In this document: positions 30,058-63,641 of the stretch, in pieces
Numbering within the stretch: the stretch's first letter is position 1
How the letters are laid out: every line of letters starts with the position of its first letter
Assembly: GCA_963809035.1 (NCBI GenBank)
Contig: CAWEHV010000002.1
Location: 2,240,361 to 2,304,360, forward strand
DNA from: an uncultured Thermoplasmata archaeon
Lineage (GTDB): Archaea; Thermoplasmatota; Thermoplasmata; Lutacidiplasmatales; UBA184
Length of the DNA: 64,000 bases
Direction: 5' to 3'
Notes under the pieces: generated by a model
What the model was told of the DNA's origin: nothing
The model's input: only the letters and a program-made list of their open reading frames with translations
Databases searched by the model: none
Made by a program: the position numbers and the translations under genes

Positions 30058-30392
30058 TCTGACAGTCTCCGACCTCGCGTAGTGGAGACCGCTATAAAGA
30101 GAGTAGGTCGCATCGCCCCCTCGCACCGAGGGAAAGTCGGTGATGAACTCGTCTTGACCGTCAGGTCCCGCTTAAATACCGCACCCACCATTCGTCGACT
30201 GGAAGGAACCCCCGGAGACGGACGGAGCCCCAACTCCCGACGTCGCTGGAGATCCGGAATCACGACTCATGATCCACCACGCCCCCCTTTGTCGTAGGCT
30301 CCGCGCATCGCCCAGCGACGTCTAGTTGGACTCGGTCGCCTCCAGGGAAGTCCCCCGCGTGAGCGGGCTGCCTTCCAACACGGAGAACCAAC

Positions 30393-31742: not shown

Positions 31743-31826
31743 TCCGAACCACCCTTTCCCGTCGCGGGGCTGTGAGAGCCCCGCGACGAACCTATAGTTT
31801 CGTCCGGCCTCTCTAGGTAGGTCCGC

Positions 31827-33371: not shown

Positions 33372-33434
33372 AACTCCGGCCGGAGAGGGTTCCTCCGACA
33401 GGCATATGAGCGGGTCGTCGGTGGCCGCCCGCAC

Positions 33435-37236: not shown

Positions 37237-37383
37237 CGGCTCCCGGCCACCCCGCGGTTGACGGCCGGCATCCTTCCGGCAACCGACCATCCGCTAATAT
37301 GGGGTGCTCCGCTGGGAGCGGCCGGAGGACGAACCCGGTTGGCCGAGGCGACGCCGACCGTCCTGCCGACCCCCCTTCCCGAG

Positions 37384-38760
37384 GTGCCGCGCCGCACGCG
37401 GGTCCTCCGGTACTTGCTCGCCTGGCTCTCAGGCGCGCTCCCCGCCTTCGCCGTGATCACGGCGCTGTGGCTCTTCCCGAGCGACTTCCACGGGGTCGGG
37501 GAGATCTCTCTGGGCGCCTTCGCCCTCATGTTCCCGGTCGCCGTCCGGGAGCTGCGCGTCCCGCGCCGGATCGGCTTCATCTATTTCCTCCTCGGTGCGG
37601 GGATGGTCTTCTCCATCGGTTCCATCTTGACCGGCGCCGCCAACGGGTTGACCGACGAACCGTTCACGACACCGCGATACGTCGGCCTGCTCTTCGCGCA
37701 CCAGGACCCGTACCTCGTCCCCCTCGTTTTCAACTACGTCCAGTACGGCCAGGTGTTCCGCTCCCAATCGATCTACCTCTACGGCCCCCTGCTGATGTTC
37801 TTCCAGATCCCGGGCCTCGATTACAAGTGGTTCGCCGTCGGATGCTGGGGGATCATGGTCCTCCTCGTCCGGAAGCGGTTCGACGTCGCGGTCATGCTCG
37901 CCCAGCCGTACGTCGCGATCATGGCCGCGAGCGGCTACAACGACCTGGTCGTCCTTGTGTTCATGACCCTCGCCTTCGTCGGGTACGAAGGGCGGCGGCA
38001 GAAGTGGGCCGAGTGGCTGTCGCTCGGGTTGAAACAGTTCGCGAACCTGCTCATCCTCGTCTACTACATCTTCCGCCGCGACTGGCGGAACACCCTCCTC
38101 ACCGCCGGCATCAGCGCGGCGTTCATCCTTCCGTTCCTTCTCTGGAGCGGCCCGGGGGTCCTGTGCCCCGCGATCCTCGCGGACCGGCTCCCGAGCTGCA
38201 GCGGAGGGAGCGCTCCCAGCTACCTGCTCAACTACTCGGTCTGGGTCGTCTGGGCGGTCGCGATCTTCTACCCCTCGTTCGTGGACCTCCTCCGCCGAGG
38301 GGCTGTGACGGGCCGCTGGAACCGCCTGCTGGCCCGCGCCGGGCTCCGGTTTGACGACCTTCTGCGCCTGCCCGCGTTCATCGTCGTCGGGATCTCCGGT
38401 GTGTTCGTCAACCTGTGCGTGTTCACCCTCCTCGGGGTCCGCTTCGGTCACGCGACCTCCGTCACGCTGCTCGCGAGCGTCGCCGCCTTCGGCGTCGCGA
38501 TGGTCTGGAACTTCACCTGGAACCGCTCCTGGGCGTTCCAAGGGCGGGGGGACCGTTCGACCGCCTACCACCTCACCGTCTACGGAGCCATCCAGGCCGT
38601 TGCGCTCGGGGTCAACTTGGCCGTCCTCGCGCTCGGGGTCGACCTCGGCATCAGCCCACTCGACAGCCAGCTCGTCGGCGTCCTTTTGGGAAGCGTGATC
38701 GGGTACGTCGCGAACCTCCGATGGAATTTCCGCGCGGTCCGGCCGCAGCCGCAGGCCTGA
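37384..38760 (+). CDS. Polytopic membrane protein: GT-C-like N-terminal domain fused to C-terminal GtrA-like domain (start GTG 37384 or TTG 37339)
   Basis: C-terminal ~130 aa match the GtrA pattern (FIVVGISGVFVNLCVF..., WNFTWNRSWAF, ANLRWNF). The N-terminal ~320 aa are paralogous to 42719..43795 (NGLTDEPFTTP, GLDYKWFAVG, SLGLKQFANL). Confidence 0.65.
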   Translation: MPRRTRVLRYLLAWLSGALPAFAVITALWLFPSDFHGVGEISLGAFALMFPVAVRELRVPRRIGFIYFLLGAGMVFSIGSILTGAANGLTDEPFTTPRYVGLLFAHQDPYLVPLVFNYVQYGQVFRSQSIYLYGPLLMFFQIPGLDYKWFAVGCWGIMVLLVRKRFDVAVMLAQPYVAIMAASGYNDLVVLVFMTLAFVGYEGRRQKWAEWLSLGLKQFANLLILVYYIFRRDWRNTLLTAGISAAFILPFLLWSGPGVLCPAILADRLPSCSGGSAPSYLLNYSVWVVWAVAIFYPSFVDLLRRGAVTGRWNRLLARAGLRFDDLLRLPAFIVVGISGVFVNLCVFTLLGVRFGHATSVTLLASVAAFGVAMVWNFTWNRSWAFQGRGDRSTAYHLTVYGAIQAVALGVNLAVLALGVDLGISPLDSQLVGVLLGSVIGYVANLRWNFRAVRPQPQA

Positions 38761-45046: not shown

Positions 45047-45254
45047 GATCGAGGGGAACGGCGAGATGTATTGACGACAACGACCGGGACGAACCAGACA
45101 TCGAACGGTTCCCGGCCGCGCTCCCTCCGACGGGAGCGACCCGGGTTGAGAGGAGGGGTAACGGGACCCCGACCGGCGGTCGTGGCCCTCGCCCCGTCCT
45201 CAAAACTTCACACGCGTTCTGTTTAACTGCCAAACGCCGCTAGCTTACGTAGCT

Positions 45255-48195
<2,941 letters not shown>

Positions 48196-48443
48196 ACAAG
48201 CGTCCAGAACGCGTGTGATCGGCGTCATCGGCCCCTCCACCGGGTCGGTGGCGGGCCTAGCCCTTCCCCGAGGAGGCCATGGCCTCAGCGGGTGCACATA
48301 CCGACCGAACAGCTTCGCCGTGGCGCGGCTCGGGTCCAACCGTGGCGTTCTATTTAACGGTCGTCGGGCCAGAATTTCCGTGGGACCGACCTCTTCCGGT
48401 CGCCCTCGGTAGCCCCTGAGCGCTCCGGGTCTACCGCGCCGCC

Positions 48444-48491
48444 CCGTCTCACTTCTACCCGAGGATAAAGAAGCGTCGGAATCCCTATTAC
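48444..48491 (+). promoter_or_regulatory. Conserved upstream element copy 1 (CCGTCTCACTT ... TATTAC) before surface-protein gene 1
   Basis: CTCACTT box ~83 nt and an A/T hexamer ~44 nt before ATG 48530. The same layout occurs before paralogs 2, 3 and the remnant. Confidence 0.4.
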
Positions 48492-48529
48492 ACTCATCGA
48501 ACAGAATTTTCGCTGCCTAGGTCCAGTGG

Positions 48530-51500
48530 ATGGCGCATTTCTCATGGTCGGCGGCAGCGCTCGTGATCGCTGCGGTTACGCTCCTCACCTTGCCGGGGAG
48601 CCTGGCGTCGGCCGGGGCCGGCCCTGGAGGTTTCCCCTCTCCCGGAGCTGGGCCATCGTCACCAATAGGCCCGAATGAGAACGCGACCCTGACCCTCGAG
48701 GCCGGTCACAACCTCTCGAGCTTGTTCTGGGGAACCACGGTCTCGCCGAGGGCCCGTCTGCTCCCCAACGAGGGGAGCCTGACGACCGGAACACCTGTGA
48801 GCGTGGTCGTGTGGCCGGGCGCGTTCGCGGGCGACGACTACGACCCGCTCGCCAACGACGCTCGGGGGGTCATCTGGACGAGCGGAAACCAGCAGACCAC
48901 GCCGTCCGTCAATGAGAGCCAGTTCGTGGCCTGGTGCCGCGCGATCAACTGCACCGCCATCTTCCAGGTCCCAGGAGAGATTGACAACCCGAGCATCGCC
49001 GCCGACATCGTCGCGTACACCGTGAATCAGACCTACACCGGTCCGGTGTGGGAGGGAGGAACGGAGGTCAACGTCACCATGCCGGGGTTGGACTTCCGGC
49101 CCGCGTACTGGGAGGTCGGCAACGAGCCGGCCCTGTGGCCGTTCTGGGACGAACCGTGGGGGGAGTGGAACCATTACCAGACACCGGACTCCGCCCAGTA
49201 TGCCCACGAGGAAAATGCGTACTTCCTCGCGATGGACGGGGCCAACCGCTCCTACCGGCCAGGGATCATCGGCCTTCCGGGGATCGGCAAGGCCAGCTCG
49301 CTCGATAATCCGAGCCAGTGGATCGACGACGTCCTCTCCCTGAACGGCCCCAACCTTTCGGGGGTCGCCACGCACATCTATCCCGCGCGCACCCTGCTGT
49401 CAGGCCAGAACGCCCTGGTGCAGTTCTACGACCAGATCGGGGCAACCGACGATAGCTCGCTGTACGCCCGGGTCGGTGACTTCGAGGTCCCGATCCTCGC
49501 AGCGTGCCGGACCTACACCTGCGGCCCGGACGCGAATGCCAGCCTCCCGATCTTCATCACGGAGGTGGGCACCTCCCTATCGCACTCGTCGTTCGGGGAT
49601 TACAGTCTCAGTTTCCCGGGGGCGCTGGGAATGGCCGTCGAAGGCATACAGGCGATGAGCCTGCCCAATGCGACGGTCGCTTCGTCCGACCTGTTCCAAT
49701 CGGTCGCGGACACGACCAACGGGTGGTTCAACAACTCCGGCGCGGCTCGACCCACCTACACGCTCTACACGCGCATCTTCTCGCACCTCGGGACGGACGT
49801 TTTCCCGGTGAACGTCACGGGCGACTCGAACCTCTCGGCCATCGCCACGGTCGCGGCCAGCGACGGCGATCGACGCGATCTCCTGGTCGCGAACTACAAC
49901 CTCACTACGAGCGCGACCTTTGGGACGGGGTTCATCAATCAGTCCTCGTTCGGCCAGGGGAGCGCCCCCCTCCCGACGTTCGCCCCGGAGGCCCCGGTCG
50001 AGGTCTGGGAGTGGAACGCCACTCCGCCGGCTTTCAACCATACCGTCGACCTGACCACCTCGGACCCGGCGACGCCGGTCCCCGTGGCGACCTACTACGA
50101 CCACGGTCTCCCGTCCAGTTGGACCCTCCCCCCCCAGTCCCTCGCCCTCTTCGAAACCTACAACGCCCTGGCCTACCCCGTGAACTTCACCGCCAACTTG
50201 ACCCCTCCGGGATCGATTCGGCTCGCGCACTGGTTCATCGACGTCGACGGCTGGCGCACGTCGTCCACTGAGGCGAGCCTCACGCTCCTCCTCCGCCCTG
50301 GCGAACACTCGGCCTTCGGCGTCCCGCTCCTGACTCCGGCGACCGGGACGGACCCCAAGTCCCGATGGAACCCCTACCTTCCACCCGTGCTGACGGTCGG
50401 AAACTCGTGGACGTGGGTCAACATCACGTTCGCCCGGCAGTGGGCGCTGAACCTCTCCTGGAACGCCAGCCGCGGGACCGTCCTCACCCAAGGTCGGAGC
50501 GGCGCGACGGGACTTCCCCCGGACGGGCAGATGAGCTGGGTCAACGACTCGGAGCCGATCAATTTGACATTCCAACCCTCCCCCGGTTACGCCTTCGACC
50601 GGTGGGATGGAGAAGGGGGCGGTAGCTTCAGCGGCTACAGCCCGATGGCGACCCTCGCGCCGACCAGCCCCCTAGAGGAGCAGGCCATCTTCCACCCCGG
50701 GACCGAGGTCACCTTCCGGGAGACCGGGCTGCCGGCCGGGACCCCCTGGTCCGTCTCGCTCCGTGGGTTCGAGCAAAACACCGCGAACCCCACTGACGTC
50801 TTTTACGAGGTCAACGGCAGCTGGGCGGATCAGGTCAACAACGTTTCCGGCTATCAGCTAATCACGCCCGGCCAGGGTGCGTGGTGGCAAAACACCCTCG
50901 TTGTGGCCAACACTTCGATGACCGTTCCGGTCCTGTACACGGCCCTGACGCCCCCCGCCCCATTCTACCCCGTCACGTTCACCGAGGTTGGGTTGCCCGA
51001 CGGCGCGAGCTGGGCCGTGACCGTGCGAAATGTATCGAATTCGGCGAACTCGCCGGGCCCCATCGCGTTCTCTGAACAGGCCGGGGCCTACGGATTCAGC
51101 TCCGGCGCAGCCGGGGGATACATCATCGTCACCCCGCTCCACTTCACGGTCGGAGACGGTTCGTTGTCGATCCAGGTCGATTTTGTGCCGCTCAATCGGG
51201 TCGTCTGGAACGAGACAGGGCTGGGGCCGGGGCTCATCTGGTCGGTACTGGTCAATGGGGCTGCTCTCCCGGATTCCGGGGGCTGGGTGGTCACGCACCT
51301 GTTCAACGGGTCCCATTCATTTACGATCCCGGGCGTACAGGACTACGTCCCTAACCCCCGTCTGGGAACCGTCGATTTGACGGGAAGCGGCACGACGATC
51401 GACGTGCGATTCGCCCGGGCGACATTCTCCGTCAAGTTTGCCGTGACCGGCCTCCCTACCGGAGCGGAATACCAGGTCCGTCTCTCGAACTCGAGTCAGC

Positions 51501-51793
51501 AAACGGCCCTCGACGCGTTCGGATTCGAAATCCCGAATGGCACGTACACGTTCGACGTCCACCCGCCGGCGGGGTACTATCCCTCCCCATCGCACGGTAC
51601 GGTGACGGTTCGCGGAAGCCCTACGGTCATCGTGATCGCCATCCTGCCCATCGGCCCCGGCCCGAATCCTCCCACGGCCACCCTGATCCTTTCGGCCACG
51701 ACCACCGCGGTCGCGCTCAGCCTCGGAGGGGCGGGCGCCTTCCTCCTCTTGGGCGCAATCCGCCGTCGACGGGCCCAAAGCAGCTTGGCTTAG
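48530..51793 (+). CDS. Giant surface glycoprotein paralog 1: signal peptide, clan GH-A-like (beta/alpha)8 glycosidase domain + beta-sandwich, repeated GLPxGTxW modules, C-terminal TM anchor
   Basis: 1087 aa. Signal peptide MAHFSWSAAALVIAAVTLLTLPGSLASA. AYWEVGNEP (acid/base NEP) and IFITEVG (nucleophile TE). Repeats such as VTFRETGLPAGTPWSVSL and VTFTEVGLPDGASWAVTV. About 30 N-x-S/T sequons by eye. C-terminus LSLGGAGAFLLLGAIRRRR. Confidence 0.85.
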   Translation: MAHFSWSAAALVIAAVTLLTLPGSLASAGAGPGGFPSPGAGPSSPIGPNENATLTLEAGHNLSSLFWGTTVSPRARLLPNEGSLTTGTPVSVVVWPGAFAGDDYDPLANDARGVIWTSGNQQTTPSVNESQFVAWCRAINCTAIFQVPGEIDNPSIAADIVAYTVNQTYTGPVWEGGTEVNVTMPGLDFRPAYWEVGNEPALWPFWDEPWGEWNHYQTPDSAQYAHEENAYFLAMDGANRSYRPGIIGLPGIGKASSLDNPSQWIDDVLSLNGPNLSGVATHIYPARTLLSGQNALVQFYDQIGATDDSSLYARVGDFEVPILAACRTYTCGPDANASLPIFITEVGTSLSHSSFGDYSLSFPGALGMAVEGIQAMSLPNATVASSDLFQSVADTTNGWFNNSGAARPTYTLYTRIFSHLGTDVFPVNVTGDSNLSAIATVAASDGDRRDLLVANYNLTTSATFGTGFINQSSFGQGSAPLPTFAPEAPVEVWEWNATPPAFNHTVDLTTSDPATPVPVATYYDHGLPSSWTLPPQSLALFETYNALAYPVNFTANLTPPGSIRLAHWFIDVDGWRTSSTEASLTLLLRPGEHSAFGVPLLTPATGTDPKSRWNPYLPPVLTVGNSWTWVNITFARQWALNLSWNASRGTVLTQGRSGATGLPPDGQMSWVNDSEPINLTFQPSPGYAFDRWDGEGGGSFSGYSPMATLAPTSPLEEQAIFHPGTEVTFRETGLPAGTPWSVSLRGFEQNTANPTDVFYEVNGSWADQVNNVSGYQLITPGQGAWWQNTLVVANTSMTVPVLYTALTPPAPFYPVTFTEVGLPDGASWAVTVRNVSNSANSPGPIAFSEQAGAYGFSSGAAGGYIIVTPLHFTVGDGSLSIQVDFVPLNRVVWNETGLGPGLIWSVLVNGAALPDSGGWVVTHLFNGSHSFTIPGVQDYVPNPRLGTVDLTGSGTTIDVRFARATFSVKFAVTGLPTGAEYQVRLSNSSQQTALDAFGFEIPNGTYTFDVHPPAGYYPSPSHGTVTVRGSPTVIVIAILPIGPGPNPPTATLILSATTTAVALSLGGAGAFLLLGAIRRRRAQSSLA

Positions 51794-51854
51794 TCGCTGG
51801 GCGTCGTTCCCCGACTGGGGAGCCCACCCGGGTCGTACTGGAATAGCCCGCCCC

Positions 51855-51902
51855 TGTCTCACTTTGAGGGAGGGATTATCCTCCGGTCGGTAGTTCTAAT
51901 AC
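51855..51902 (+). promoter_or_regulatory. Conserved upstream element copy 2 (TGTCTCACTTTGAG ... TAATAC)
   Basis: Box ~86 nt and an A/T hexamer ~46 nt before ATG 51943. Nearly identical to copy 4. Confidence 0.4.
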
Positions 51903-51942
51903 GCAATTCGGTTCCCCGGGGGCAGCGCCGGGTTGCCAAATC

Positions 51943-54900
51943 ATGCGGTCCTCATGGCTAGTGGTAACGCTCGCCCTCACCACCCTAGGGATCCTCACGC
52001 TGCCGGGCGTTCTCGCCAGCGGGGGGGCCGGTCCCGGAAGTTCTTCGCCGCCCGGGGGGGCGGGCGTGCCCGGTTCGAGTCTGACCATCAACGCCTACCT
52101 CACCTTGGGGAACGGGGCCAGCAACCTCACGTCCCCGATCCTCCTCGGCAGTACGGTCACCCCCCGAGCCCCGCTACTCCCTAACCAGGCCGCCCTCGTG
52201 AACGCCACGCCCCAAGGGGCGATCGTCTGGCCGGGCGGGAACGCCGGAGACACCCTCAACCCGCTCGGCAGCAACGGCACGGGAATCCTGTATACCAGCG
52301 ATGGCCAATTCGTTCATCCGGAGACTAACGAGAGCGAGTTCGTGGCCTGGTGTCGTTCGATCAACTGCACCGCCATCTTCCAGGTCCCCGGGGAGCTCAA
52401 TAATTCTGCCATCGCCAGAGACATCGTGGCCTACACGGTGAACACCACTTATTCGGGCCCAATCTGGGGCTATGAGACAAACATTACCAAAGGAAAGGGC
52501 GACCCTCTGGGAATCGAACGCAACGTCACAAATTTCCCAGGGCTGGACTTCCGGCCCGCGTACTGGGAAATTGGTAACGAGCCCGTCTTTTGGCACCATT
52601 GGAACCAGCCTTGGGGCGCCACGTACGACACCGGTAATGTCAGCGCAACCGTGTACGGTCAGCTGGTCGAGTCCTACGAACTCGCGATGGACCAGGCCAA
52701 CACCACTTACACCGCGAAGATCCTGGCCCCGCCCGGAATTGGGAGCGGCGCGCCCCCCACCCCTTGGATCAATGCCATCCTCAATGACACCGGAGGAAAC
52801 CTCGCTGGCGTCGCCATGCACAATTACGCGGCTGGTACTGGTGACCCGAACGGAGGGATCAACGAGCCGGGGAGCATCGCGCAATTTGAGAAGTCGTTCG
52901 CCCCGAAAGCCGGGCTGTATAGCAGCATTCAAACCGAGGCGGCTCAAATCCGGAGCCTCTGCCATATGTACGGCCGGAACTGTACCCTCCCCCTGTTTGT
53001 CACGGAGGTCGGCCCCGCGCTCTCCCACGGGGGGTACGGCCCCTTTAGCGCCACATTCCCGGGCGCCCTCTCCGTGGCCGACCAGGCCATCCAGGCGATG
53101 GACTTCAGCGCCTCCACGCTCGTTACCACGAATATATTCTCGACCGTGTCCGACTCCGCCAACTCTTGGTTCAGCCTCAATGGTTCGGCCCGACCTTCCT
53201 ATACGGTTTACAGCCAGGTCCTGAACCACCTCGGGAACGACGCGTTTCCGGTCCGCGCGACCAACGGAGTCGTCACTAGAGGCACGGATCAGACGCTGAA
53301 CGCCCTCGCCACCATCGCGCCGAACGACAGCGACCGCCACGATCTCCTCGTCGTGAACACCAACGTGAGCAGTCCGTCCGTCTTCAGCACGAACTTCATC
53401 AACAGCTCGTACGTTCTCTCCACAAGCCCGGCCTTCCCGGCCACCTTTAAGAACGGCGCCCCCGTCGAGGTTTGGGAATGGAGCGGGTACAACGTCACCG
53501 TCTGGGCCCAAACCTCGCAGGACAACCACACGGTGCTCTACAACACGTCCGATCCGGCGACGCCGGTCCCCATTCCCTTCTACTATCCTCACGGCCTACC
53601 GCCCATCTTTTCGGTTCCCCCGTTGTCCCTCGCCCTCTTCGAGACCTACAACGCACCGGCCTACCCGGTCCAGTTCGAGGAGAGCGGCCTCAGCTTGGCC
53701 CCACCGAACCTGAGCGCTCCGAACCTGACCGCTCGCTGGTTCCTCGACGTCGACGGCACGAATACTTCCACGAACGCGACCAATATCACCCTCCTGCTGC
53801 CCCCAGGTAATTATCCGACCTCCGCTGTCCCGATACTCACCCCGACCCCGGGGCATGTGCTCGTCCCGAAAGAACGGTACCTCCCCGTCCTCCCCTCCAC
53901 CACGGTGGTGGGGAACTCGCCGACGACCGTCATCGTGTCCTACATCCGGCAATGGGCGCTCAACATCTCATGGAACACCAGCCGGGGCACCGTGGCGGCC
54001 ACGAACCTCGGCAGCGGGATCGGACCACCCCCGACTTGGTGGAATGCCTCCCAACCGCTCACCCTGAAGTTCCGTCCGCAGCCCGACTTCGCCCTCGACG
54101 TATGGGCTGGGGAGGGAGGCGGGAGCTTCACCGGTTACAGCATAGAAGCGACGATCGCTCCCACCAGTCCAGTAGGGGAGCAGGCTATCTTCGAGCCTGG
54201 GAACACCGTGACCTTTTCGGAGACCGGACTTCCAACCGGCACTCCTTGGAACGCCTCGCTGAGGGGCCTCAACGCGACCTCGACCAACAGCTCGATCGTC
54301 TTCAACGAGATCAACAGTAACCTCACCACGAATCGCGGCTGGGGGTACGAGGTCAGCAACGTGACAGTCCGGAACGTCGCCACGGGCAACCTAACGACGT
54401 ATCGCGTCGAGCGGACTCTGGCGAACGTGACGGTGGACAACGCCCCCGTTACGGTCCCGGTCACCTTTGACGAGCTCTTCCCGATCACGCTTATCGAGAC
54501 GGGATTGCCCATGGGAACCGAATGGAACGCGACGGTCGCCGGTGGGTCCGCCGTCCAGGCCAGCGGCACCTCCTTCGGGGATTCCATCGCCCTCAGCGAA
54601 GCCAACTCGACGGTAAACCACGCCTGGGGGCTCGAGGTCCCCCGGGTCTTTCCGCCCGGTTCCCCGGGTACCGCCCGCAGCTCACTCTGCCGAACGGGAC
54701 CCTAGTCAACGGCTCGGCGGCGAGCGTGGTCCTGAAGGGGAGTCCGCTGACCGTTCGGGTCCATTTCATCTTGCTCACGCCGCCCGCGACCCGCTACCCC
54801 ATCACCTTCATCGAGACGAACCTCATCCCAGGTACGAACTGGTCGGTGACCGTGGCCAACGGAACGAGCGTGGCCAGTACCGGATGGTCGACGTCGGCCA

Positions 54901-56510
54901 CGCTCCTCCTTTGGGAACCGAATTCCACCTTGAACGCGTGGGGATTCACGGCCAGCGCTCTCCACTACCGCTTCAACGCGACGGCGGATTCGTCCGTGGT
55001 CGTCGCAGGCGCGCCCGCCCAAGCCACCGTGAACTTCCAGCTTCTCTTCTCGATCACGTTCAAGGAACAAGGACTCCCGCTCCCCTACGACCCGCCCACC
55101 GGCTGGAACGTGTCCCTGGCCACTGGCAACCCTGGCAACCCTGCCAACCCTGGCAACCTCGCGTTGGCCCAGAACGGGTCGTCGACCTCGCAAACCATCG
55201 TCCTCTGGGAACCGAACAGCACGATTAGAAGCGGGAAGAATCCGGGGTATGGTTACCTCGCCAACGCGGGACCGGAGTACCACTTCGAACGAATCCTCCC
55301 GCTCATCTACATCGACGGGTCGGATGTTACCGTCTCGATCATCTTCGACCTGCTCACGGAGTCGACGTTCGTAGAAACCGGGCTCCTGCCGGGGACCCCC
55401 TGGCCCCTCGAGGTCAAGGGGTTCACGGGGCCGGAGTGGAACAACGGCAGCTGGACGGAGAAGAACTTCTTCGAGACCCCCGGCGACTGGGGGTACTCGA
55501 TCGGCGACGCGACCTCGCTCAATGCCACGGGAGTCCTCACGAAATACCACGTCATGGTAATGGGGCCCCAAGGGACGGAGGTCGCCACGCACAATGGCAG
55601 CTTTACGGTAAACCAGTCGGCCGTCACGGTTACCATCTCGTTCTTCCCGTTCCCGTACTATCCGGTGACGTTCACCGAGCAGGGGCTCCCCTCCGACGCG
55701 ACCTGGCACGTGACCGTCCGCAACGTCACCGAGGTGGGGAACGACGCCCATCCGATCCTGTTCGTCGAACAGAACGGGAGCTACGGGTTCTTTGCGGGCG
55801 CGGCCGGGGGCTACAACGTGTCGTCCGCCCTGTACTTTGACGTCAGCGGGGTCCCCGTGTCGGTCACGGTGGTCTTCGTCCCGCTCAACAAGGTGATCTG
55901 GGAGGAGACCGGCCTCGGACCCAACCTCACGTGGTCGGTGCTCCTCAACAGTTCGCAGGTGCTCGCCGCCCACGTCGGATGGACGACGGTGCGCGAGTTC
56001 AACGGAACCGGCTTCAGTTTCACCATCCCGGTCGTCCAGGCGGTGACCGGGGGCCCAGCCTACGTCCCGAGTCCCCGGGTGGGGACGTTCGACCTGACGG
56101 GGGTTGGCCTCATCATCGAAGTGCACTTCATCCTGGTGACGTACGAGGTGACCGTGACCGTGACCGGCCTTCCGAGCGGCGACCAGTACCGGATCTCGCT
56201 ATCGAATGTCACGGAGACGACGACGCTCCTCTCCTTCTCCCTCGCGCGACCCAACGGTACGTGGTCGTTCGACATCGTCCCCCCGACGGGCTTCTACGGT
56301 TCTCCCCAGGGCGGCAAGTTGAACGTGACCGGACACTCCGTCGTGCAGACGATCTCCATCCTCGTCATCGGTCGGGGCCCGACCCCTCCTATCTGGACCC
56401 TCGTCTTGCCATCGGCGACGACGGCGATCGTGCTCGGCCTCTCGGGAGCGGGAATGTTCGCGCTGTTGGGGTCGACCCGGCGCCGAGGGTCCCAAAACCG
56501 GTCGGCGTAG
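51943..56510 (+). pseudogene. Giant surface glycoprotein paralog 2, reading frame broken by a 1-nt deficit in the C4G3 run at ~54662-54668
   Basis: Track ORFs 51943..54705 and 54522..56510 join as ...WGLEVPRVFPPGSPG|YRPQLTLPNGTLVNGS..., collinear with paralog 3 (...WGFQVPYVYPPTTPGFRPTHIDWNGKNV...). Has WEIGNEP and LFVTEVG, a signal peptide and a C-terminal TM anchor. Confidence 0.8.
55125..55160 (+). repeat. In-frame 9-bp tandem repeat, 4 units (GGCAACCCT-like), encoding (GNP)n
   Basis: ggcaaccct ggcaaccct gccaaccct ggcaacctc, read directly. Absent from the equivalent position of paralog 3. Confidence 0.8.
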
Positions 56511-56523
56511 TCTCGCCTTGCGG
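56163..56523 (+). repeat. Near-identical 361-nt tract shared with 60803..61164 (3' end of paralogs 2 and 3)
   Basis: I find only three differences by eye (one extra C in copy 3, one T/C, one G/C). Flanking paralogous sequence is clearly more diverged. Confidence 0.85.
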
Positions 56524-56529
56524 CCCCTC

Positions 56530-56577
56530 CGCCTCACTTTGAGAAGGGGATCACCCTCGGGTCGGAAGGTGTTTTAC
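56530..56577 (+). promoter_or_regulatory. Conserved upstream element copy 3 (CGCCTCACTTTGAG ... TTTTAC)
   Basis: Box ~85 nt and an A/T hexamer ~46 nt before the TTG start at 56618. Confidence 0.35.
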
Positions 56578-56617
56578 GTCACATGGACTAGCGGAAGCAG
56601 CCCCGGATTACCCGATC

Positions 56618-59600
56618 TTGAGATCTTCTTCATGGCTCGTAGTCACACTCGCAATCACCACGGTAGGGATTCTCACCCTGCCAGGTGCCTTTGCCAGCGG
56701 AGGCGCCAATCTAGGAGGTTCTTCGCCTCCCGCAGGAGGGGGCGTCCCCGGTTCCAACATGGCCATCGACGCCTTCCTCACATTGGGCAACGGGTCCGGC
56801 AACTTGACGTCCCCGATCCTCCTTGGGACCACGGTCACCCCCCGAGCCCCGATACTCCCGAACCAAGACGGCCTCCTCAGCGCCACGCCGGGCGGTGCGG
56901 TCGTCTGGCCGGGCGGTAACGCCGGCGACGACCTCAACCCACTCGGCAACTACACGGCCGGGGCCAGGAACGGAACGGGAGGTGTGACGGGAGTCATGTA
57001 TACCTCCGGGGACAAATGGGTTGTCCCGGAGACTCGCGAGAGCGCCTTCGTAGCCTGGTGTCGGTCGATCAGCTGCACCGCCATCTTCCAGGTCCCCGGG
57101 GAGCTCAACGATCCCACCATCGCCCGAGACATCGTAGCCTACACCGTGAACAAGACCTACACCGGCCCCGTATGGACCAACGAGACGGAGCCGGGTAACG
57201 GTGGAAATGGCAATCCTCGGGGAATCGAACGTACCGAGACCATGCCGGGGCTGGATTTCCGACCGGCGTACTGGGAAGTTGGTAACGAACCTGGGCTCTG
57301 GAGCCATTGGGATCAGCCTTGGGGGGCCCGGACCGGCGCCGTGAGCGTTACCCCCGCAGAGTACGGCCAAGTGGTCGAGTCCTACAAGCTCGCGATGGAC
57401 CAAGCCAACTCATCCTACACTGCGAACATCATCGCCCCCCCGGGGGTCGGGGGTAAGGCGGAGGCCGGGGGCTGGCTCGATGACATCCTTAACGACACCG
57501 GAGGGAACCTCGCGGGAGTCGGCATGCATGCGTACATTATTGGCAGCAACGCCTGGACCAATACTACCACGGCACCGTCCATGGCGCGGTTCGTCCAGTC
57601 CATCACCGCTCCGAGCGGCCTTCACACGCGCATCCAGGGGCAGGCGTCCACCATCGCGCAGGCATGCCATTCGTTCGGCCTGGGCTGCAATCTGCCGATA
57701 TTCGTCACGGAAGTAGGCAACGGTCTTTCCCACTGGCCGTACGGCACTTATAGCGCAACATTCCCGGGTGCCCTCGGTGTGACGATCGAGGCCATCCAGG
57801 CGATGGACTTCCCCGCCTCCACGATCATGACCACGAACGTGTTCTCGACGGTGTCCGACTCGAACAATTCTTGGTTTAACCTCAGCGGCGCGGTCCGGCC
57901 GAGCTATACCGCCTACAGCCAGATCTTGAACCATCTCGGGAACGACGCGTTTCCGGTCAGCACGTTCAACGAGACCAATGGTGTCAAGAACCGACTGGAA
58001 GATTCGACGCTCACTGCCATTGCCACCATCGCGCTCAACGACCGCGACCGCCGCGATCTGCTCGTTGTGAACACCAACGTGAACCAACCGGCCAATTTTA
58101 GCACGGCCTTCATCAACAGCTCGGACGTTTCGTTCAGCAGCCCGAGCTTCCCGGCGACGTTCAAGAGCGGCAGCCCGGTCGAGGTCTGGGAGTGGAGTGG
58201 GCAGAGGGCCCACGTCTTCGCCAGGAACAAGGTCGAACAGAACGGGGCGAACTACACTACGTTAGATCCGACCCCCCCGGGCCCGGTTCCCACCTATTAC
58301 CCCAACGGTCTGCCCGCCAACTTTTCGATCCCCGCGATGTCCCTCGCCCTCTTCGAGACCTACAACGCACCGGCCTACCCGGTCCAGTTTGAGGAGAAGG
58401 GCCTCAGCCTGGCTCCATCGAACCTGACCGCTCACTGGTTCCTCGACGTCGACGGCAGGAACACTTCCACGAACGCGACCAATATCACGCTCCTGTTGCC
58501 CCCCGGTAGTTACCCGACTTCCGGAACCCCGGTGCTCGTTCCGACTCCGGGCTCCGTGCTCGTCCCGAAAGAACGGTACTACCCCGTCCTCCCCTCCACC
58601 ACGGTGGTGGGGAACTCGCCGACGACCGTCATCGTGTCCTACATCCAGCAATGGGCGCTCAACATCTCCTGGGACCATAGCCGGGGCACCGTGGTGGCCA
58701 CGGACCTCGGCAGCGGCGTAGGACCACCTCCGACCTGGTGGAATGCTTCCGAACCGCTCACCCTGCAGTTCCATGCCAACGATTCGAACGCGAGGTACGC
58801 CTACGCCTTCGACCGGTGGGACGGAGAAGGGAACGGTAACTATAGCGGCTACAACGTTACGGCCACGCTCGATCCGACCGGCCCCGTGGAAGAGCAGGCC
58901 ATCTTCCTCCGCGGGTACGCCGTCAACTTCTCGGAGAGGGGCCTACCGTCGGGAACTCCGTGGAACGTCTCGTTGAGGGGCCTCAACGCGAACCCAACCA
59001 GCTCCTCGACTACATTCTACGAGATCGACGGCCAATGGCCATACCAAGTGAACAACGTCACCGTCCCGAACCCCACCACGGGCAATCTCACCACGTACCG
59101 AGCCGATCACAACACAGTGCCGGGACAATCGTGGGGGGACGTCAACGTGCAGAACAGCTCCGTGAACGTCCCGGTCAATTTCTCCGAGCTCTACCCGATC
59201 ACGTTCACCGAACAGGGATTACCAACGGGGGTCAATTGGAGTGTCATCGTGGCCAACGATTCAACCGTGCAAACGGGGGGCGATACGTCCGGCCATTCCA
59301 TCGTCGTGAACGAAGCCGACGGGAACTGGGGCTTTCAGGTTCCGTATGTCTACCCACCCACCACCCCGGGGTTCCGTCCGACCCATATCGATTGGAACGG
59401 AAAGAACGTGAGCAGTACCGGGGGCAACGTTACGTTGAATGGAGCTCCGACGTCGGTCCAGATCACGTTTGTCGAGCTCACGCCCAACGCCACCCGTTAT
59501 CCGGTCTACTTCACCGAGACGAACCTCGCCCCCGGCACCCTCTGGACCGTGACCGTGGCTAACAGATCGGACGTAGCCACCACGAACTCGTCCACCACCC

Positions 59601-61151
59601 AGACATTGATCGTCTGGGAAAAGGACGGTAAATGGGGATTCACTGCTTCCGCCGTGGGATACCACTTCGATCGAACGCAGGGGTTCTTCACCGTGAACAA
59701 CGCCAGCGCGTCGGTCGCCGTCGACTTCGAGTACCTCTATCGTATCACCTTCGAGGAGACGGGCCTTCCGCTCCCCTACGACCCTCCCCGCGGCTGGAAC
59801 GTCTCGGTGGCCACCGAGAACCCCTTGGAAACGAATGGCTCGTCGACGGGTTCCTCCCTCGTTCTCGAGGAGCCGAACGGGACCTGGGGGTACCTCGCCA
59901 ACGCGGGACCCGAGTACCACTTCAACCGAACTCTCGCGGACATCACCATCGCGGGCTCGGATGTCACCGTCTCGGTCGTCTTCGACCTGCTCACGGAGTC
60001 CACCTTTGAGGAGAGCGGACTGCTGCCGGGCACCGCGTGGCCCCTCGAAGTCCACGGGTTCGACGGGGCGAGCTGGAACAACAACAGCACAGTGATCAAG
60101 AACTTCTTCGAGACGAACGGCACCTGGGGGTACGTGATCGGGAATGCGACGACCCTCAACGCCACGGGCGTTCTCACGAAGTACCACGTCGTGCGAACGG
60201 AGTGGAACGGGACCGAGGCTCAGGGGCCCGGCGGGAATTACACCGTAGACGGGGCCAACATCACGATCCACATCGAGTTCCTCCCGCTCCCGTACCTCCC
60301 CATCACGTTCACTGAGGTCGGGCTCCCCTCCGGCACGACCTGGAGCGTGACGATGCGCAACGTCTCCAACTCGACGGGCGCCCCCGACCCGATCCTGTTC
60401 CGGGAGCAAGCCGGGCTGTACGGGTTCTCCGCGGGGGCGGCCGGGGGCTACAACGTCTCCTCGTCGCTCTACTTCAATGATACCGGCCGCACCTCGATGT
60501 TGATCACGGTCGACTTCGTCCCGGGCAACCACGTGATCTGGGAGGAGACCGGCCTCGGACCCAACCTCTCCTGGTCGGTCCTCCTCAACGGCTCGGAGGA
60601 CCTGCCCGCCAAAGGAGGGTGGGCGAATATTCGCGAGTTCAATGGCACCGGCTACTCCTACAACATCCCGGTGGTGCAGGCGTATCCCGGGGGTCCGGCC
60701 TATGTCCCGAGTCCCCGGCTGGGAACGATCGACCTTACCGGTAGCGGACGGATCCTCAACATTCATTTCATCCTGGTCACCTATGAGGTGACCCTGGTCC
60801 TCACCGGCCTTCCGAGCGGCGACCAGTACCCGGATCTCGCTATCGAATGTCACGGAGACGACGACGCTCCTCTCCCTCTCCCTCGCGCGACCCAACGGTA
60901 CGTGGTCGTTCGACATCGTCCCCCCGACGGGCTTCTACGGTTCTCCCCAGGGCGGCAAGTTGAACGTGACCGGACACTCCGTCGTCCAGACGATCTCCAT
61001 CCTCGTCATCGGTCGGGGCCCGACCCCTCCTATCTGGACCCTCGTCTTGCCATCGGCGACGACGGCGATCGTGCTCGGCCTCTCGGGAGCGGGAATGTTC
61101 GCGCTGTTGGGGTCGACCCGGCGCCGAGGGTCCCAAAACCGGTCGGCGTAG
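56618..61151 (+). pseudogene. Giant surface glycoprotein paralog 3, 1-nt insertion (CCC at 60829-60831 vs CC in paralog 2) shifts the last ~110 codons
   Basis: As written, the ORF runs 56618..61183 with an Arg/Pro-rich nonsense tail. Track ORF 60960..61151 carries the correct-frame TM anchor, identical to that of paralog 2. Has WEVGNEP and IFVTEVG. Apparent TTG start (LRSSSWLVVTLAI...). Confidence 0.8.
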
Positions 61152-61164
61152 TCTCGCCTTGCGG
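60803..61164 (+). repeat. Second copy of the near-identical 3' tract (see 56163..56523)
   Basis: Direct comparison of the two stretches. Confidence 0.85.
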
Positions 61165-61170
61165 TCCTTC

Positions 61171-61218
61171 CGTCTCACTTTGAGAGAGGGGTTATCGCCC
61201 GGTCGAAAGGCCTAATAC
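61171..61218 (+). promoter_or_regulatory. Conserved upstream element copy 4 (CGTCTCACTTTGAG ... TAATAC)
   Basis: Box ~85 nt and an A/T hexamer ~45 nt before ATG 61258. Nearly identical to copy 2. Confidence 0.4.
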
Positions 61219-61257
61219 CCAATCCGGTCCAGCGAGGGCAGCGCCCGGTTGCCAATC

Positions 61258-61449
61258 ATGCGGTTCTCGTGGCTGGTGGGCACACTCGCCCTCCTCACCG
61301 TAGGAATCCTCACGCTGCCGGGAGTCCTGACCAGCGGGGACGCCGAGCTGGGAGGTTCTTCGACTCCCGGAGGGGGCGGCGCCGCCGGTCCGAGCATGCC
61401 CTTCGACGCCTACCTCACCCGCAAACGAGGATCGGGAGTCTCCCTCTGA
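61258..61449 (+). pseudogene. 5' remnant of a fourth surface-protein paralog (signal peptide + ~40 aa only)
   Basis: MRFSWLVGTLALLTVGILTLPGVLTSG...GPSMPFDAYLT aligns with MRSSWLVVTLALTTLGILTLPGVLASG...GSSLTINAYLT of paralog 2. Similarity decays and a TGA follows at 61447-61449. Confidence 0.6.
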
Positions 61450-61472
61450 CGGACGCCCTCGCCCACGTCGGC

Positions 61473-63641
61473 ATGGCGGGAACCTTCGGCGTCTCGCGGA
61501 GCTCCTGGCCTCCCTGGTTCCAGAGCTTTCTCAATTGGGTTTCGGGCGTGGGTCACTCTCTCGTCGTCCTCCTATCGCCCATCCTCGACCCGTTGGGAAC
61601 GGTGGGCAGGCATTACGGGATCCCGTTCGGGGCGGTCGTTTCCGGCCTGGTTCTCGGCGCCATCGTATCGTTCTCGATCGCCTGGCTGGCCGACCGGCCC
61701 ACGACGGACGGACCGGGGACGAATGCGATGGTGGCCCGGTGGCCGTGGGAGGGGCCGCCCCCGGATCCCTCCCCCTCCGCCGGAGCCCCCTCAGCCCCGA
61801 GCGTCCGGGTCTACGGCAAGGACGGGGTGACCGTCCTCCCGATGCGGGGGGCGGGCGAGCACCCATCGCTCCGCCTCCCCCGCGCGCGCGGGTTCGTCTT
61901 CGTCCTAGTCGGGTTGTTCGCCACGTCGGGGTTCCTCCTGCTCTACTTCTATGGACGAATCTTCAACCATTACGACCACCTGGTCGCCTTGGCCGGGACG
62001 TTCCTCTACTGGCCTCTCCATTGGCCGGGGATCTACACCGTCGGCGCCAACGCGCTCGACGTGCCGGACTACATCTTCCCGATGTACCTGGCCGCGATGT
62101 TCGCGTTCGTCGTCGCGAGCGGTCTGCTCTTCAATCGACCCCACCATTCGGTCCGACGCCGCGCCTTCGCGCTTGGGATCATCCTGTTCTACATCGCCAT
62201 GGAGGTCTTCCTCGACGCCCTGCTCTTCACGGTGCCGGGCCGCGAGGTGCGCGACTTTGGCCTCCTGGTGCGGACGCTGACCGGAGGCCTGTTCATGGTG
62301 ACGCTCATGTTCTGCGCCACCTATCTCCCGAAGCCCCAGCGCCTACCCGCCCGCTTTCCACGCGACCGGGGCGCGGTCGGAGCGTTTGTGGGGATCGGGG
62401 GTCTGGCCGTGGGGCTGTCGGTCGTACTCGTGCTCGTCGTCTCCGATCTCCTGGGCGTGACCGGCCTCCTGCTCCCGTTCACGCTCCTGCTCCTCGTTCC
62501 CCTTCTCTCGCTCACCGTCTTCGGCGTGATCGCGCGACCGTTCTATTTCCGCTACGTCCGCCGCAGTCATCTCCCTCCCCTTGCGGCCTACCATCCCTCC
62601 GTGTCGATCGTGATGCCCGCCTTCAACGAGGAAGAGTGGATCTGGGAGACCATCCTCGCGGCTGACAAGGCCGCCGGACTGTATCCGGGCGATGTCGAGA
62701 TCATCGTGGGAAATGACGGGTCCACGGACCATACGCTGGAACTCGCCCGGGCCGCGATCGGGCATCTCCAGCACGCGAAGGGGTACGTCGTCGACCTTCC
62801 CCACGGTGGCAAGTCGAACGCGCTCAACGGCGCCCTGGCCCTCGCGCGCCACGAGATCGTCCTGCGGTGCGACGCCGACACGCACATCTCGGCGGAGCTC
62901 GGGTTCGGAGAGATGATACGCCACTTCGCCGACCCCACGGTCGGCGGGGTCCAGGGCGCGCTGCACCCGCTCCAGCACAACGGGTGGACCCGGAAATTGC
63001 GGGCCCTCGAGATCGCGTGGATGCACTACCTGCTCCGTCCGGCGAACATGGGGACCCGATCGGCCGAGGTCATCGACGGACTCTTCTCCGCGTTCCGTCG
63101 AAAGGACCTGGTCGAGCTCGGGGGCTGGGTCCCTTGGAACGGGGAGGACACTGAGATCTCGATGCGAGTCCAGCGACTCGGTTACCGCATCCGGATCGAG
63201 TTCGGCTCGCTCGCTTTCGAAGATGTGCCGAAGGACTACGAAGCACTGCGCCGTCAGCGCGTGCGCTGGGCCCGCGGTATCCTGATGGCCAACGGCCAGC
63301 ACTACGTCTCCCTCTTCGGCCCGACACCCGAGTACTGCGGCGTCTCCGTCTTCTTCTGGTTCCTGCTCTTGATGCGCTCGGGCGTGCGCAGCCTCGTCTA
63401 CCTCTATCTGGCGGTGCTGATCGTCGTCCTCGGGGTTCCGGCGCTCGCCTTTACCGCGGCGCTCTTCCTCATCGGGATCGCGATCCGTGCGGTCCCGATC
63501 GGCTACTTCCTCGCCAAGATGGGACGGAAGGACGTGCTCCTATGGATCCCGTTCTTCCCGGTCGCGAACGTCATCAAGCAGTCGTTCCGGTTCGAGGGGT
63601 ACGGCACCCTCGGCCCGAACGCCGCCCAGGAATACATTTAG
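61473..63641 (+). CDS. Processive-type family-2 glycosyltransferase (cellulose/chitin/PNAG-synthase-like) with a ~400-aa polytopic N-terminal extension
   Basis: From ATG 61473: VSIVMPAFNEEE, VGNDGSTD, RCDADT (DxD), WNGEDTE (TED) and QRVRWARG (QxxRW), followed by 3-4 C-terminal TM helices. The upstream part of track ORF 61269.. overlaps the remnant and is Arg-rich. Confidence 0.85.
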   Translation: MAGTFGVSRSSWPPWFQSFLNWVSGVGHSLVVLLSPILDPLGTVGRHYGIPFGAVVSGLVLGAIVSFSIAWLADRPTTDGPGTNAMVARWPWEGPPPDPSPSAGAPSAPSVRVYGKDGVTVLPMRGAGEHPSLRLPRARGFVFVLVGLFATSGFLLLYFYGRIFNHYDHLVALAGTFLYWPLHWPGIYTVGANALDVPDYIFPMYLAAMFAFVVASGLLFNRPHHSVRRRAFALGIILFYIAMEVFLDALLFTVPGREVRDFGLLVRTLTGGLFMVTLMFCATYLPKPQRLPARFPRDRGAVGAFVGIGGLAVGLSVVLVLVVSDLLGVTGLLLPFTLLLLVPLLSLTVFGVIARPFYFRYVRRSHLPPLAAYHPSVSIVMPAFNEEEWIWETILAADKAAGLYPGDVEIIVGNDGSTDHTLELARAAIGHLQHAKGYVVDLPHGGKSNALNGALALARHEIVLRCDADTHISAELGFGEMIRHFADPTVGGVQGALHPLQHNGWTRKLRALEIAWMHYLLRPANMGTRSAEVIDGLFSAFRRKDLVELGGWVPWNGEDTEISMRVQRLGYRIRIEFGSLAFEDVPKDYEALRRQRVRWARGILMANGQHYVSLFGPTPEYCGVSVFFWFLLLMRSGVRSLVYLYLAVLIVVLGVPALAFTAALFLIGIAIRAVPIGYFLAKMGRKDVLLWIPFFPVANVIKQSFRFEGYGTLGPNAAQEYI

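Follow-up and report, generated by a model that had tools for sequence, protein, structure and literature searches.

Within a 64-kb stretch of the genome of an uncultured Thermoplasmata archaeon (the window, 64,000 nucleotides of contig CAWEHV010000002.1), five collinear features on the + strand fill positions 48530-63641: three genes for large paralogous surface proteins, a remnant of a fourth such gene, and a gene for a family 2 glycosyltransferase (GT2). The paralogues carry a glycosidase head that is predicted to belong to the glycoside hydrolase (GH) clan GH-A, and the glycosidase and GT2 genes form a conserved adjacent pair. We see about an even chance that the pair is a conserved module of a synthase and a tethered glycosidase or transglycosylase for a surface glycan of uncultured high-GC soil and peat Thermoplasmata. 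This reading builds on the fold and the catalytic residues of the head, on the sequon enrichment and the membrane anchor of the paralogues, on the synthase class of the GT2, and on the synteny. Synthases that are paired with glycosidases are already known in principle. New are the archaeal setting, the apparently unclassified GH51-like family, its stalked, anchored, and hyper-glycosylated presentation, and the extended GT2. We know of no synthase-dependent polysaccharide secretion system that has been characterised in archaea, and to our knowledge none of the abundant soil and peat Thermoplasmata has been cultured. The locus is a concrete and widely conserved two-gene candidate for the making and remodelling of surface glycans in these organisms, and it combines a large GH family with intact catalytic machinery and a synthase-type GT2 with a novel nine-helix membrane domain. 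Literature searches on surface (S-) layers, GHs, and glycosyltransferases of Thermoplasmata, on archaeal synthase-dependent exopolysaccharides, and on cellulose synthases of Thermoplasmatota, which were incomplete in coverage, found no description of such a module. This agrees with the first-pass annotation, an earlier reading of the same stretch by a model, which had not recognised the composition as a described system.

The motifs WE[VI]GNEP and [FI][IV]TEVG are present in the N-terminal domains of all three copies, as the first-pass annotation had noticed. An AlphaFold2 model of residues 1-610, based on an alignment of 83 homologues, reached a predicted local distance difference test score (pLDDT) of 90.6 and a predicted template-modelling score of 0.89. 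With this model, Foldseek retrieved 247 PDB structures at E <= 0.001, of which the best 50 without exception belong to clan GH-A and are composed of a barrel and a beta-sandwich (GH51 arabinofuranosidases, GH79 beta-glucuronidases/heparanases, and GH44 endoglucanases). The top scores range from E 2e-18 to 2e-16 with target-normalised template-modelling scores (TM-scores) of 0.56-0.74 at 12-16% identity. The N-terminal domain is thus modelled with high confidence as a (beta/alpha)8 barrel of the GH-A type with a beta-sandwich after it. N198 and E199 are located directly after the strand 193-196, H282 and Y284 (the His-x-Tyr of beta-6) at the end of the strand 276-283, and E345 within the strand 341-346. 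The acid/base Glu thus matches the beta-4 position of clan GH-A and the nucleophile Glu the beta-7 position, with the strand numbers assigned by homology. All 83 homologues, the most distant with about 28% identity, have N198, H282, Y284, and E345, and 82 of them also have E199, the single exception being an Asp. The fold of this domain and the places of the two Glu had been named in the first-pass annotation as the points to check, and the high-confidence model has both Glu at the acid/base and nucleophile sites of a GH-A barrel. Judged by sequence and model, the head is most likely a catalytically competent, GH51-like retaining glycosidase or transglycosylase.

At the sequence level the relationship to known families is distant. 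A single-sequence phmmer search of the PDB with copy 1 gave no match up to E 10. We built one profile from the full-length alignment (A1) and one from the N-terminal domain only (A3). The GH51 matches of A1 in the PDB are marginal because the stalk columns dilute the profile, which is why the N-domain profile was needed. The best match of A3 in the PDB is the GH51 enzyme AbfB (2y2w, E 4.4e-9); nine further GH51 sequences score under 1e-3, and the GH51 matches after the best one range from 1e-4 to 1e-1. In the profile alignment WEiGNEp lies over WcIGNE of GH51 and vFvtEig over SFDEWG, which we take to be the catalytic acid/base and nucleophile motifs of GH51, respectively. These profile matches point to GH51, but identity is only 12-16%, and no Pfam model passes for the proteins of the window. 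Glyco_hydro_44 of Pfam does not match any of the three copies in the window, and stalk-less relatives reach 19-21 bits with it, below the cut-off of 25.1 (three of ten sampled). The accessible part of a dbCAN survey of the soil order Lutacidiplasmatales (GC ~69%) names only GH57, GH15, and GH133 (PMC9287336), which indirectly suggests that the current CAZy hidden Markov models (HMMs) miss the glycosidase family. From its sequence, the family appears to be unclassified and distantly related to GH51.

The remaining parts of the paralogues are those of large glycosylated surface proteins. An HMM derived from the Y.VTF.E.GLP.GT.W units finds five stalk modules in copy 1 and nine each in copies 2 and 3, in line with the modules of about 80-100 amino acids that had been proposed earlier. 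Copy 2 has the same domain layout as copy 1 apart from the number of modules, and copies 2 and 3 are longer than copy 1 because of the additional modules and of insertions in the barrel. The copies contain 32, 60, and 62 N-x-S/T sequons (about 30 had been estimated by eye for copy 1), where 9.8+-2.7, 19.7+-3.6, and 20.8+-4.0 are expected from 1000 shuffles per protein. This is an about 3-fold excess in all three copies (z 8-11); the GT2 has no sequon at all. At the C-terminus of every copy, a Pro-rich linker leads to about 25 hydrophobic residues and RRR(R), the transmembrane (TM) helix with Arg-rich tail that the first-pass annotation had described. Two Cys pairs are conserved in the alignment of the homologues, which fits an extracytoplasmic location. 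Based on signal peptide, sequon excess, Cys pairs, and C-terminal TM helix with Arg tail, the paralogues are predicted to be extracellular. When the three paralogues were scanned with Pfam and NCBIfam, no family exceeded its threshold. The sub-threshold matches to Flg_new_2 (E 0.026) and GldM_2nd (E 0.057) are taken as noise or as a weak hint. Residues 677-701 of copy 1 match the Divergent InlB B-repeat (PF18998) with 14.9 bits, below the gathering score of 23.6, and a precomputed match to this family exists in 12 of the 97 homologues described below. The stalk module is also found in giant proteins with 23-44 copies (P0313, P0317, and P0218, the latter with 3552 amino acids and 44 matched stretches). 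None of these three has a full-length match to the N-terminal domain, so that the module seems to be a widely reused building block of surface proteins.

By their sequences, the likeness among the three copies is far above chance. The N-terminal domain of copy 1 is 46-47% identical to those of copies 2 and 3, and copies 2 and 3 share 72% DNA identity over 4.8 kb and 67% identity in protein. The last ~150 residues of copies 2 and 3 (56060-56510 and 60700-61151), comprising the final stalk modules, the TM helix, and the tail, are 89-100% identical, compared to 50-85% in the remainder. Gene conversion may have caused this distribution, or the anchor may be strongly constrained.

The GT2 consists of a GT-A domain with membrane helices on both sides (Table 1). 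Its motifs DGSTD, DADT, GEDTE, and QRVRW are invariant over 63 orthologues (56-84% identity), and the same holds for many Asp, Arg, Tyr, Phe, and Trp residues of the N-terminal membrane region. The Pfam families Glyco_trans_2_3, Glycos_transf_2, and Glyco_tranf_2_3 (PF13632, PF00535, PF13641) match, the best NCBIfam model is PgaC/IcaA (E 8e-28), and the orthologues are labelled 'cellulose synthase/poly-beta-1,6-N-acetylglucosamine synthase-like' at JGI. In the AlphaFold2 model (pLDDT 86.7) helices are found on both sides of the glycosyltransferase domain. The best PDB folds in Foldseek are the hyaluronan synthases of Chlorella virus and Xenopus, BcsA of E. coli and Rhodobacter, PcManGT, and chitin synthases, and the top matches align over 400-620 columns. 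In the search with the sequence profile PcManGT comes first (6e-24), then chondroitin polymerase (1e-12) and BcsA (5e-11), the latter over about 355 positions including TM segments (BcsA residues 51-433). There is no Pfam match to a PilZ domain in the GT2, and no BcsB-like gene among the neighbouring genes of the examined loci. As modelled, and consistent with its sequence, the GT2 belongs structurally to the membrane-integrated synthase class of hyaluronan, cellulose, and chitin synthases. By analogy, it would secrete a polymer and would do so processively. The similarities to hyaluronan synthase, BcsA, PgaC, and chitin synthases are all of the same order and do not single out one type of polymer. 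The strongly conserved N-terminal membrane domain of nine helices is novel.

The link between the two genes is found from either side, and the co-localisation, which the first-pass annotation had suggested to look for, holds in most relatives. We scanned one genome per GTDB species for loci of the glycosidase family, which yielded 144 relatives, and from these we used 75 distinct loci (here given as L and a number). Except for a few generically labelled records these loci are from Thermoplasmata metagenome-assembled genomes (MAGs), sampled in peat and in soils that include acid sulfate soils; several family loci per genome are common. Using the GT2 as query, tblastn showed that 39 of the 75 loci contain an orthologue (34-79% identity), and the match mostly extends over the N-terminal membrane domain as well. 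Full-length matches have 42-79% identity, and the lower values belong to matches ended by a contig edge. In these loci the GT2 is almost always located directly downstream on the same strand. We also counted adjacency for those glycosidase genes with enough flanking sequence, grouping as close paralogues those with at least 36% identity to copy 1. An adjacent GT2 on the same strand is present for 31 of 36 close paralogues and for 11 of the 27 more distant ones. In the reverse direction we looked up three GT2 orthologues, chosen only for their long contigs, and all three have a member of the glycosidase family (1030-1391 amino acids) ending 49-68 nucleotides (nt) upstream, with the remaining neighbours varying among the three loci. 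L002 has the same layout as the window, namely a gene of the copy 1 type, a gene of the copy 2/3 type, and the GT2, and L013 contains two complete glycosidase-GT2 pairs within 21 kb. The order is reversed, GT2 followed by glycosidase, in a distant subfamily (L043, L044, L047). In L044 (7629-14994) the GT2 of 672 residues is followed by a GH-like anchored protein with a cytoplasmic tail of about 100 residues and then by a gene for an anchored protein of stalk modules without the GH-like head; upstream, on the opposite strand, there is an open reading frame (ORF) of 1124 codons rich in Gly, Ala, Thr, and Val.

The family itself is large. A search covering 5.8 billion proteins returned 97 homologues; all of those with an informative name are from uncultured Thermoplasmata MAGs, one of them labelled Euryarchaeota, and nearly all are annotated as 'hypothetical'. 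A HMMER search of 1.84 billion cluster representatives gave 608 clusters (50% identity) at E <= 1e-30, which include many stalk-less proteins of 460-550 residues. Two of ten sampled clusters carry a taxon name, both being Thermoplasmata MAG proteins, and the others are unnamed or plain 'hypothetical protein'. No further member of the family was found elsewhere in the window.

How might the two proteins work together? The GT2 would polymerise a sugar from a nucleotide-sugar at the cytoplasmic face of the membrane and would thread the growing chain across the membrane within its own TM-helix bundle. The paralogues would be type I, heavily N-glycosylated surface proteins held by the C-terminal TM helix, with a stalk of five to nine beta-modules carrying the GH51-like catalytic head. 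This head may cut, trim, release, or re-link the product of the GT2 or a related glycan of the cell surface. In the window, the glycosidase gene has been amplified in tandem to three copies and a fourth, deleted one, and the GT2 now is located behind the leader of the remnant. Parallels that act beside their synthases are BcsZ, PslG, KORRIGAN, and the fungal Gas/Gel enzymes. A bolder version is a proteoglycan-like envelope of the cell-wall-less Thermoplasmata, in which the GT2 extrudes a polysaccharide and the stalked GH-A heads, as transglycosylases, covalently graft or cross-link the chain onto the glycans of the same proteins. We consider this quite unlikely, but if true, archaea would have a counterpart to the wall assembly of fungi, and a two-gene module would encode a new kind of archaeal cell envelope.

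Several observations weigh against a synthase with its tethered glycosidase. An adjacent GT2 is missing for 5 of the 36 close and 16 of the 27 distant paralogues, and the pair is not accompanied by conserved accessory or export genes. Neither of two stalk-less members that we examined is linked to a GT2. One of them, P0291 (483 residues, L082 6001-7452), is encoded between two MFS transporter genes. A gene of the PNGase A family (935 residues) adjoins it, and this context looks catabolic, unlike that of the GT2-linked anchored forms. The closest solved sequence relative of the GT2, PcManGT (E 6e-24), has reportedly been proposed for N-glycan assembly and is not an established processive synthase. 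With PgaC/IcaA the GT2 scores 97.5 bits, far from the equivalog cut-off of 422.3 (TIGR03937). PcManGT uses GDP-mannose (PMC12595478). The catalytic head is placed at the far end of a long stalk and not at the membrane, where a chain would exit. Lastly, copies 2 and 3 are frameshifted in the window assembly, and copy 3 begins with TTG. The proposal of a glycan synthase with a tethered glycosidase, as already made in the first-pass annotation, is sustained in its folds, motifs, and synteny, whereas the secreted polymer and the action of the glycosidase on it are what we infer.

The alternative that survives best is that the GT2 decorates glycoproteins. As a PcManGT-like transferase it would act on a lipid-linked or protein-linked glycan, the sequon-rich neighbours would be its dedicated clients, and the job of the GH domain would be unrelated. 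PcManGT is the best sequence match of the GT2 in the PDB also with the single sequence (E 3e-16), and its target-normalised TM-score of 0.63-0.69 is the highest among the best-ranked Foldseek hits. The 32-62 sequons of the surface proteins would suit such clients, and other glycosylation genes are close by, namely that of a GtrA/DPMS-type protein and, past the GT2 in L076 of the same strain, those of another GT2 and of a GT4 (described below). However, the GT2 is twice the size of PcManGT, with about nine additional TM helices that are highly conserved. Its complete set of D, DxD, ED, and QxxRW is invariant, and hyaluronan and cellulose synthases rank first in Foldseek. Moreover, it is unusual for enzymes of general N-glycosylation to stay beside a single client gene across so many genomes and in either gene order. 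Both the large conserved TM domain and the similarity of the fold to synthases speak against decoration, if less decisively than the evidence does against the other alternatives, and we regard it as unlikely.

Nutrient scavenging is rather unlikely. The paralogues would then be anchored GH51-like enzymes that hydrolyse polysaccharides from the environment, for example plant hemicellulose, or foreign glycoproteins. Tandem amplification would reflect substrate diversification, and the adjacency of the GT2 would have no mechanistic meaning. GH51, GH44, and GH79, the closest families, are mostly catabolic, the 608 clusters reveal a large and diversified family, and the surroundings of P0291 would be those of a catabolic enzyme. 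The related order Lutacidiplasmatales is described as organoheterotrophic (PMC9287336). Archaeal extracellular enzymes are commonly membrane-anchored and N-glycosylated. Scavenging leaves unexplained the GT2 next to 31 of 36 close paralogues, the two gene orders, and the duplicated pairs, and in the examined loci no sugar-transporter or catabolic genes are located beside the anchored forms. The synteny argues against scavenging. If decoration or scavenging were true instead, a new enzyme family would still be left, of ordinary biological interest. Finally, a structural coat of S-layer-like or variable surface proteins with the GH-A barrel as a lattice-forming or lectin head is very unlikely: signal peptide, glycosylated repeat ectodomain, and C-terminal TM anchor are as in archaeal surface-layer glycoproteins, and the tandem paralogues and the 89-100% identical C-termini of copies 2 and 3 would suit it, but the catalytic Asn-Glu, the His-x-Tyr, and the nucleophile Glu are essentially invariant throughout the family, which is unexpected for a purely structural or lectin domain and argues against this explanation, and no S-layer family or PGF-CTERM-type sorting-signal model matched in the Pfam and NCBIfam scans, nor did any characterised adhesin family, which the first-pass annotation had also asked about.

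The features of the locus are collected in Table 1. The arrangement of three same-strand paralogues, a remnant, and a QxxRW-type GT2 is as given in the first-pass annotation. The paralogue lengths of 1087 and twice about 1500 residues hold for the genes, although the frameshifts in copies 2 and 3 had not been mentioned, and the GT2 directly follows the remnant with a spacing of 23 nt from its stop codon to the ATG (61473), not 24 nt.

Table 1. Features of the glycosidase-GT2 locus in the window (aa, amino acids)
Feature	Nucleotides	Strand	Residues	Remarks
Upstream region of paralogue 1	48185..48529	+		between divergent 23S rRNA gene and start of copy 1; putative promoter/leader
Paralogue 1	48530..51793	+		intact ORF, 1087 aa, 32 sequons
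Copy 1 signal peptide			1-27	
Copy 1 GH-A barrel	48671-49789		~48-420	predicted
Copy 1 N198-E199	49121-49126		198-199	
Copy 1 E345	49562-49564		345	
Copy 1 beta-sandwich	49790-50167		421-546	predicted
Copy 1 stalk	50174-51637		549-1036	five modules and one putative B-repeat-like domain
Copy 1 TM helix and RRRR tail	51674-51790		1049-1087	after Pro-rich linker
Paralogue 2	51943..56510	+		~1522 aa read through; nine stalk modules; two overlapping ORFs (920 + 662 aa)
Paralogue 3	56618..61151	+		~1509 aa read through; TTG start; nine stalk modules
Remnant of fourth paralogue	61258..61449	+		63 codons (signal peptide and N-terminus), then stop
GT2 gene	61473..63641	+		ATG start; 722 aa; equals database protein P0098
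GT2 N-terminal helices			13-363	about nine
GT2 GT-A domain			~375-600	
GT2 DGSTD	62715-62729			
GT2 DADT	62871-62882			
GT2 GEDTE	63141-63155			
GT2 QRVRW	63255-63269			
GT2 C-terminal helices				four or five, after GT-A domain

The DNA of the remnant is 79.5% identical to the start of copy 2, and the same ORF of 63 codons is present and gene-called in the contigs L076 and L077. An ORF of 790 codons starting from the GTG at 61269 was considered for the GT2 gene and rejected because of its out-of-frame overlap with the remnant and because the gene call in the database has 722 residues from the ATG at 61473. A leader of about 110 nt is common to the upstream sides of all four copies including the remnant (48410-48529, 51823-51942, 56498-56617, 61138-61257). 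The motifs follow each other in the order GTCTCACTT ... GTCGG ... T[AT][AT]TAC, with the last box about 40 nt before the start codon. CTCACTT is invariant in the four leaders and is followed by GTCG and the T[AT][AT]TAC box, and the mean column identity of the four aligned upstream regions is 71%. The conserved motifs suggest a putative promoter or leader element. Since the remnant has also kept it (61146-61257), the GT2 is located directly behind a paralogue leader and a mini-ORF of 63 codons. The glycosidase and GT2 genes may be co-transcribed. Copy 3 starts with TTG at 56618 where copy 2 and the remnant have ATG. In its orthologue P0013 the gene callers start at an internal ATG, which would remove the signal peptide.

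Two of the paralogues are disrupted in the window assembly. Copy 2 is split by the loss of one base in a G/C homopolymer stretch at 54655-54674, within CCCGGTTCCCCGGGTACC. Copy 3 has one extra C at 60829 (CCC instead of CC; GTACCCGG compared to GTACCGG in L076) and therefore appears as an ORF of 1521 codons, whose last ~115 residues are nonsense. Its genuine C-terminus is found in another frame, the out-of-frame part being the last ~100 residues with the final stalk module, the TM helix, and the RRR tail. Copy 2 is uninterrupted in the NCBI MAG protein P0021 (99.9% and 99.1% identity to the two halves), and copy 3 is uninterrupted in the NCBI MAG protein P0013 (100% identity over 1357 residues). 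Copy 3 is also intact in the independent JGI metagenome contig L076, which has 99.4% DNA identity to the window over 7.8 kb. Because both shifts are single-base changes in homopolymers and absent from these near-identical independent assemblies, sequencing or assembly errors or strain-specific mutations are likelier than true pseudogenisation. A homopolymer sequencing error is the simplest account, the alternative being inactivation at the strain level. Similar indel errors may affect other genes of the same contig, which at 2.3 Mb is the whole assembly of this genome.

Upstream of the locus there is a complete archaeal 23S rRNA gene (45246-48184, - strand), which is divergent from copy 1 and 345 nt away from it. 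No 16S or 5S rRNA gene is present anywhere in the window, and the rRNA genes are thus unlinked, as known for Thermoplasma. Outside the rRNA gene the GC content is 62-71% per 2-kb block (about 67% overall), and the dip at 46-48 kb is caused by the 23S rRNA gene. Together with the contig of 2.3 Mb and the habitats of the relatives, this GC content suggests that the window comes from Lutacidiplasmatales or an order related to it. About 10 kb upstream of the locus, the ORF at 36733-38760 (+) encodes a protein with a C-terminal TM domain of the GtrA/DPMS family (E 1.5e-16), which has been connected with the metabolism of lipid-linked sugars. We examined whether an ORF of 1055 codons at 30267-33434 (-) might encode another surface protein and discarded it, because the + strand encodes Toprim (primase-like) and AAA/Mg-chelatase-like proteins there. 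This ORF has no family match and probably is an artefact of the high GC content. In L076 (7447-14792), the region past the GT2 in the same strain, beyond the end of the window, contains two convergent genes without Pfam match (266 and 299 residues) and a GATase gene. The same group follows the GT2 orthologue of L079, which has 59% identity. Still farther downstream in L076 there are a second, short GT2 (334 residues) and a GT4. Thus, there may be a wider glycosylation neighbourhood downstream of the GT2.

Each part of the locus resembles a known system in some respects and differs from it in others. Archaeal S-layer glycoproteins also begin with a signal peptide, are built of repeated beta-modules with dense N-glycosylation sequons, and are anchored by a C-terminal TM helix that has a basic tail. 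In contrast to them, the paralogues carry an apparently active enzyme head, and their C-terminus has no recognised tripartite sorting-signal motif. The GH51 alpha-L-arabinofuranosidases (2Y2W, 3UG3, 2C8N, 6D25) share the order of barrel and beta-sandwich, the acid/base in a GNE motif, and the aligned nucleophile Glu. However, the paralogues are predicted to be extracellular and to carry N-glycans, and their catalytic domain is joined to a modular stalk and a TM anchor. GH79 beta-glucuronidase/heparanase and GH44 endoglucanase are equally good matches in Foldseek (E ~1e-17, TM-score up to 0.74), but their sequence signal is weaker than that of GH51, and the Pfam GH44 matches of the relatives stay below the gathering cut-off. 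PcManGT from Pyrobaculum calidifontis (6YV7-9), a minimal cellulose-synthase-like GT2, is archaeal and membrane-bound as well and has the same GT-A core at about 20-22% identity, but it comprises 356 instead of 722 residues, has no nine-helix N-terminal domain, and has DD at the position of ED in the window GT2.

Pairs of synthase and glycosidase are known as BcsA-BcsZ (GH8), PgaC-PgaB, Psl-PslG (GH39, clan GH-A), and CesA-KORRIGAN (GH9; membrane-anchored and N-glycosylated). In these synthase-dependent exopolysaccharide systems a QxxRW GT2 is coupled, genetically or functionally, to an extracytoplasmic and often tethered glycosidase, and conserved adjacency supports such a coupling here. The differences are the archaeal host, the different and unclassified GH-A family, and the long glycosylated stalk. 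Compared to the bacterial systems, BcsB, PilZ, PgaD, outer-membrane porin, and TPR partners are missing here, and the N-terminal TM domain of the GT2 is unusually large. In fungi, the glycosylphosphatidylinositol-anchored GH72 (Gas/Gel; clan GH-A) and GH16 (Crh) enzymes are transglycosylases of the wall that act on the product of a membrane synthase. They have no sequence relationship to the paralogues, and lineage, type of anchor, and polymer differ. Nevertheless, they are tethered, heavily glycosylated, retaining enzymes outside the cell, as the paralogues of the window are predicted to be.

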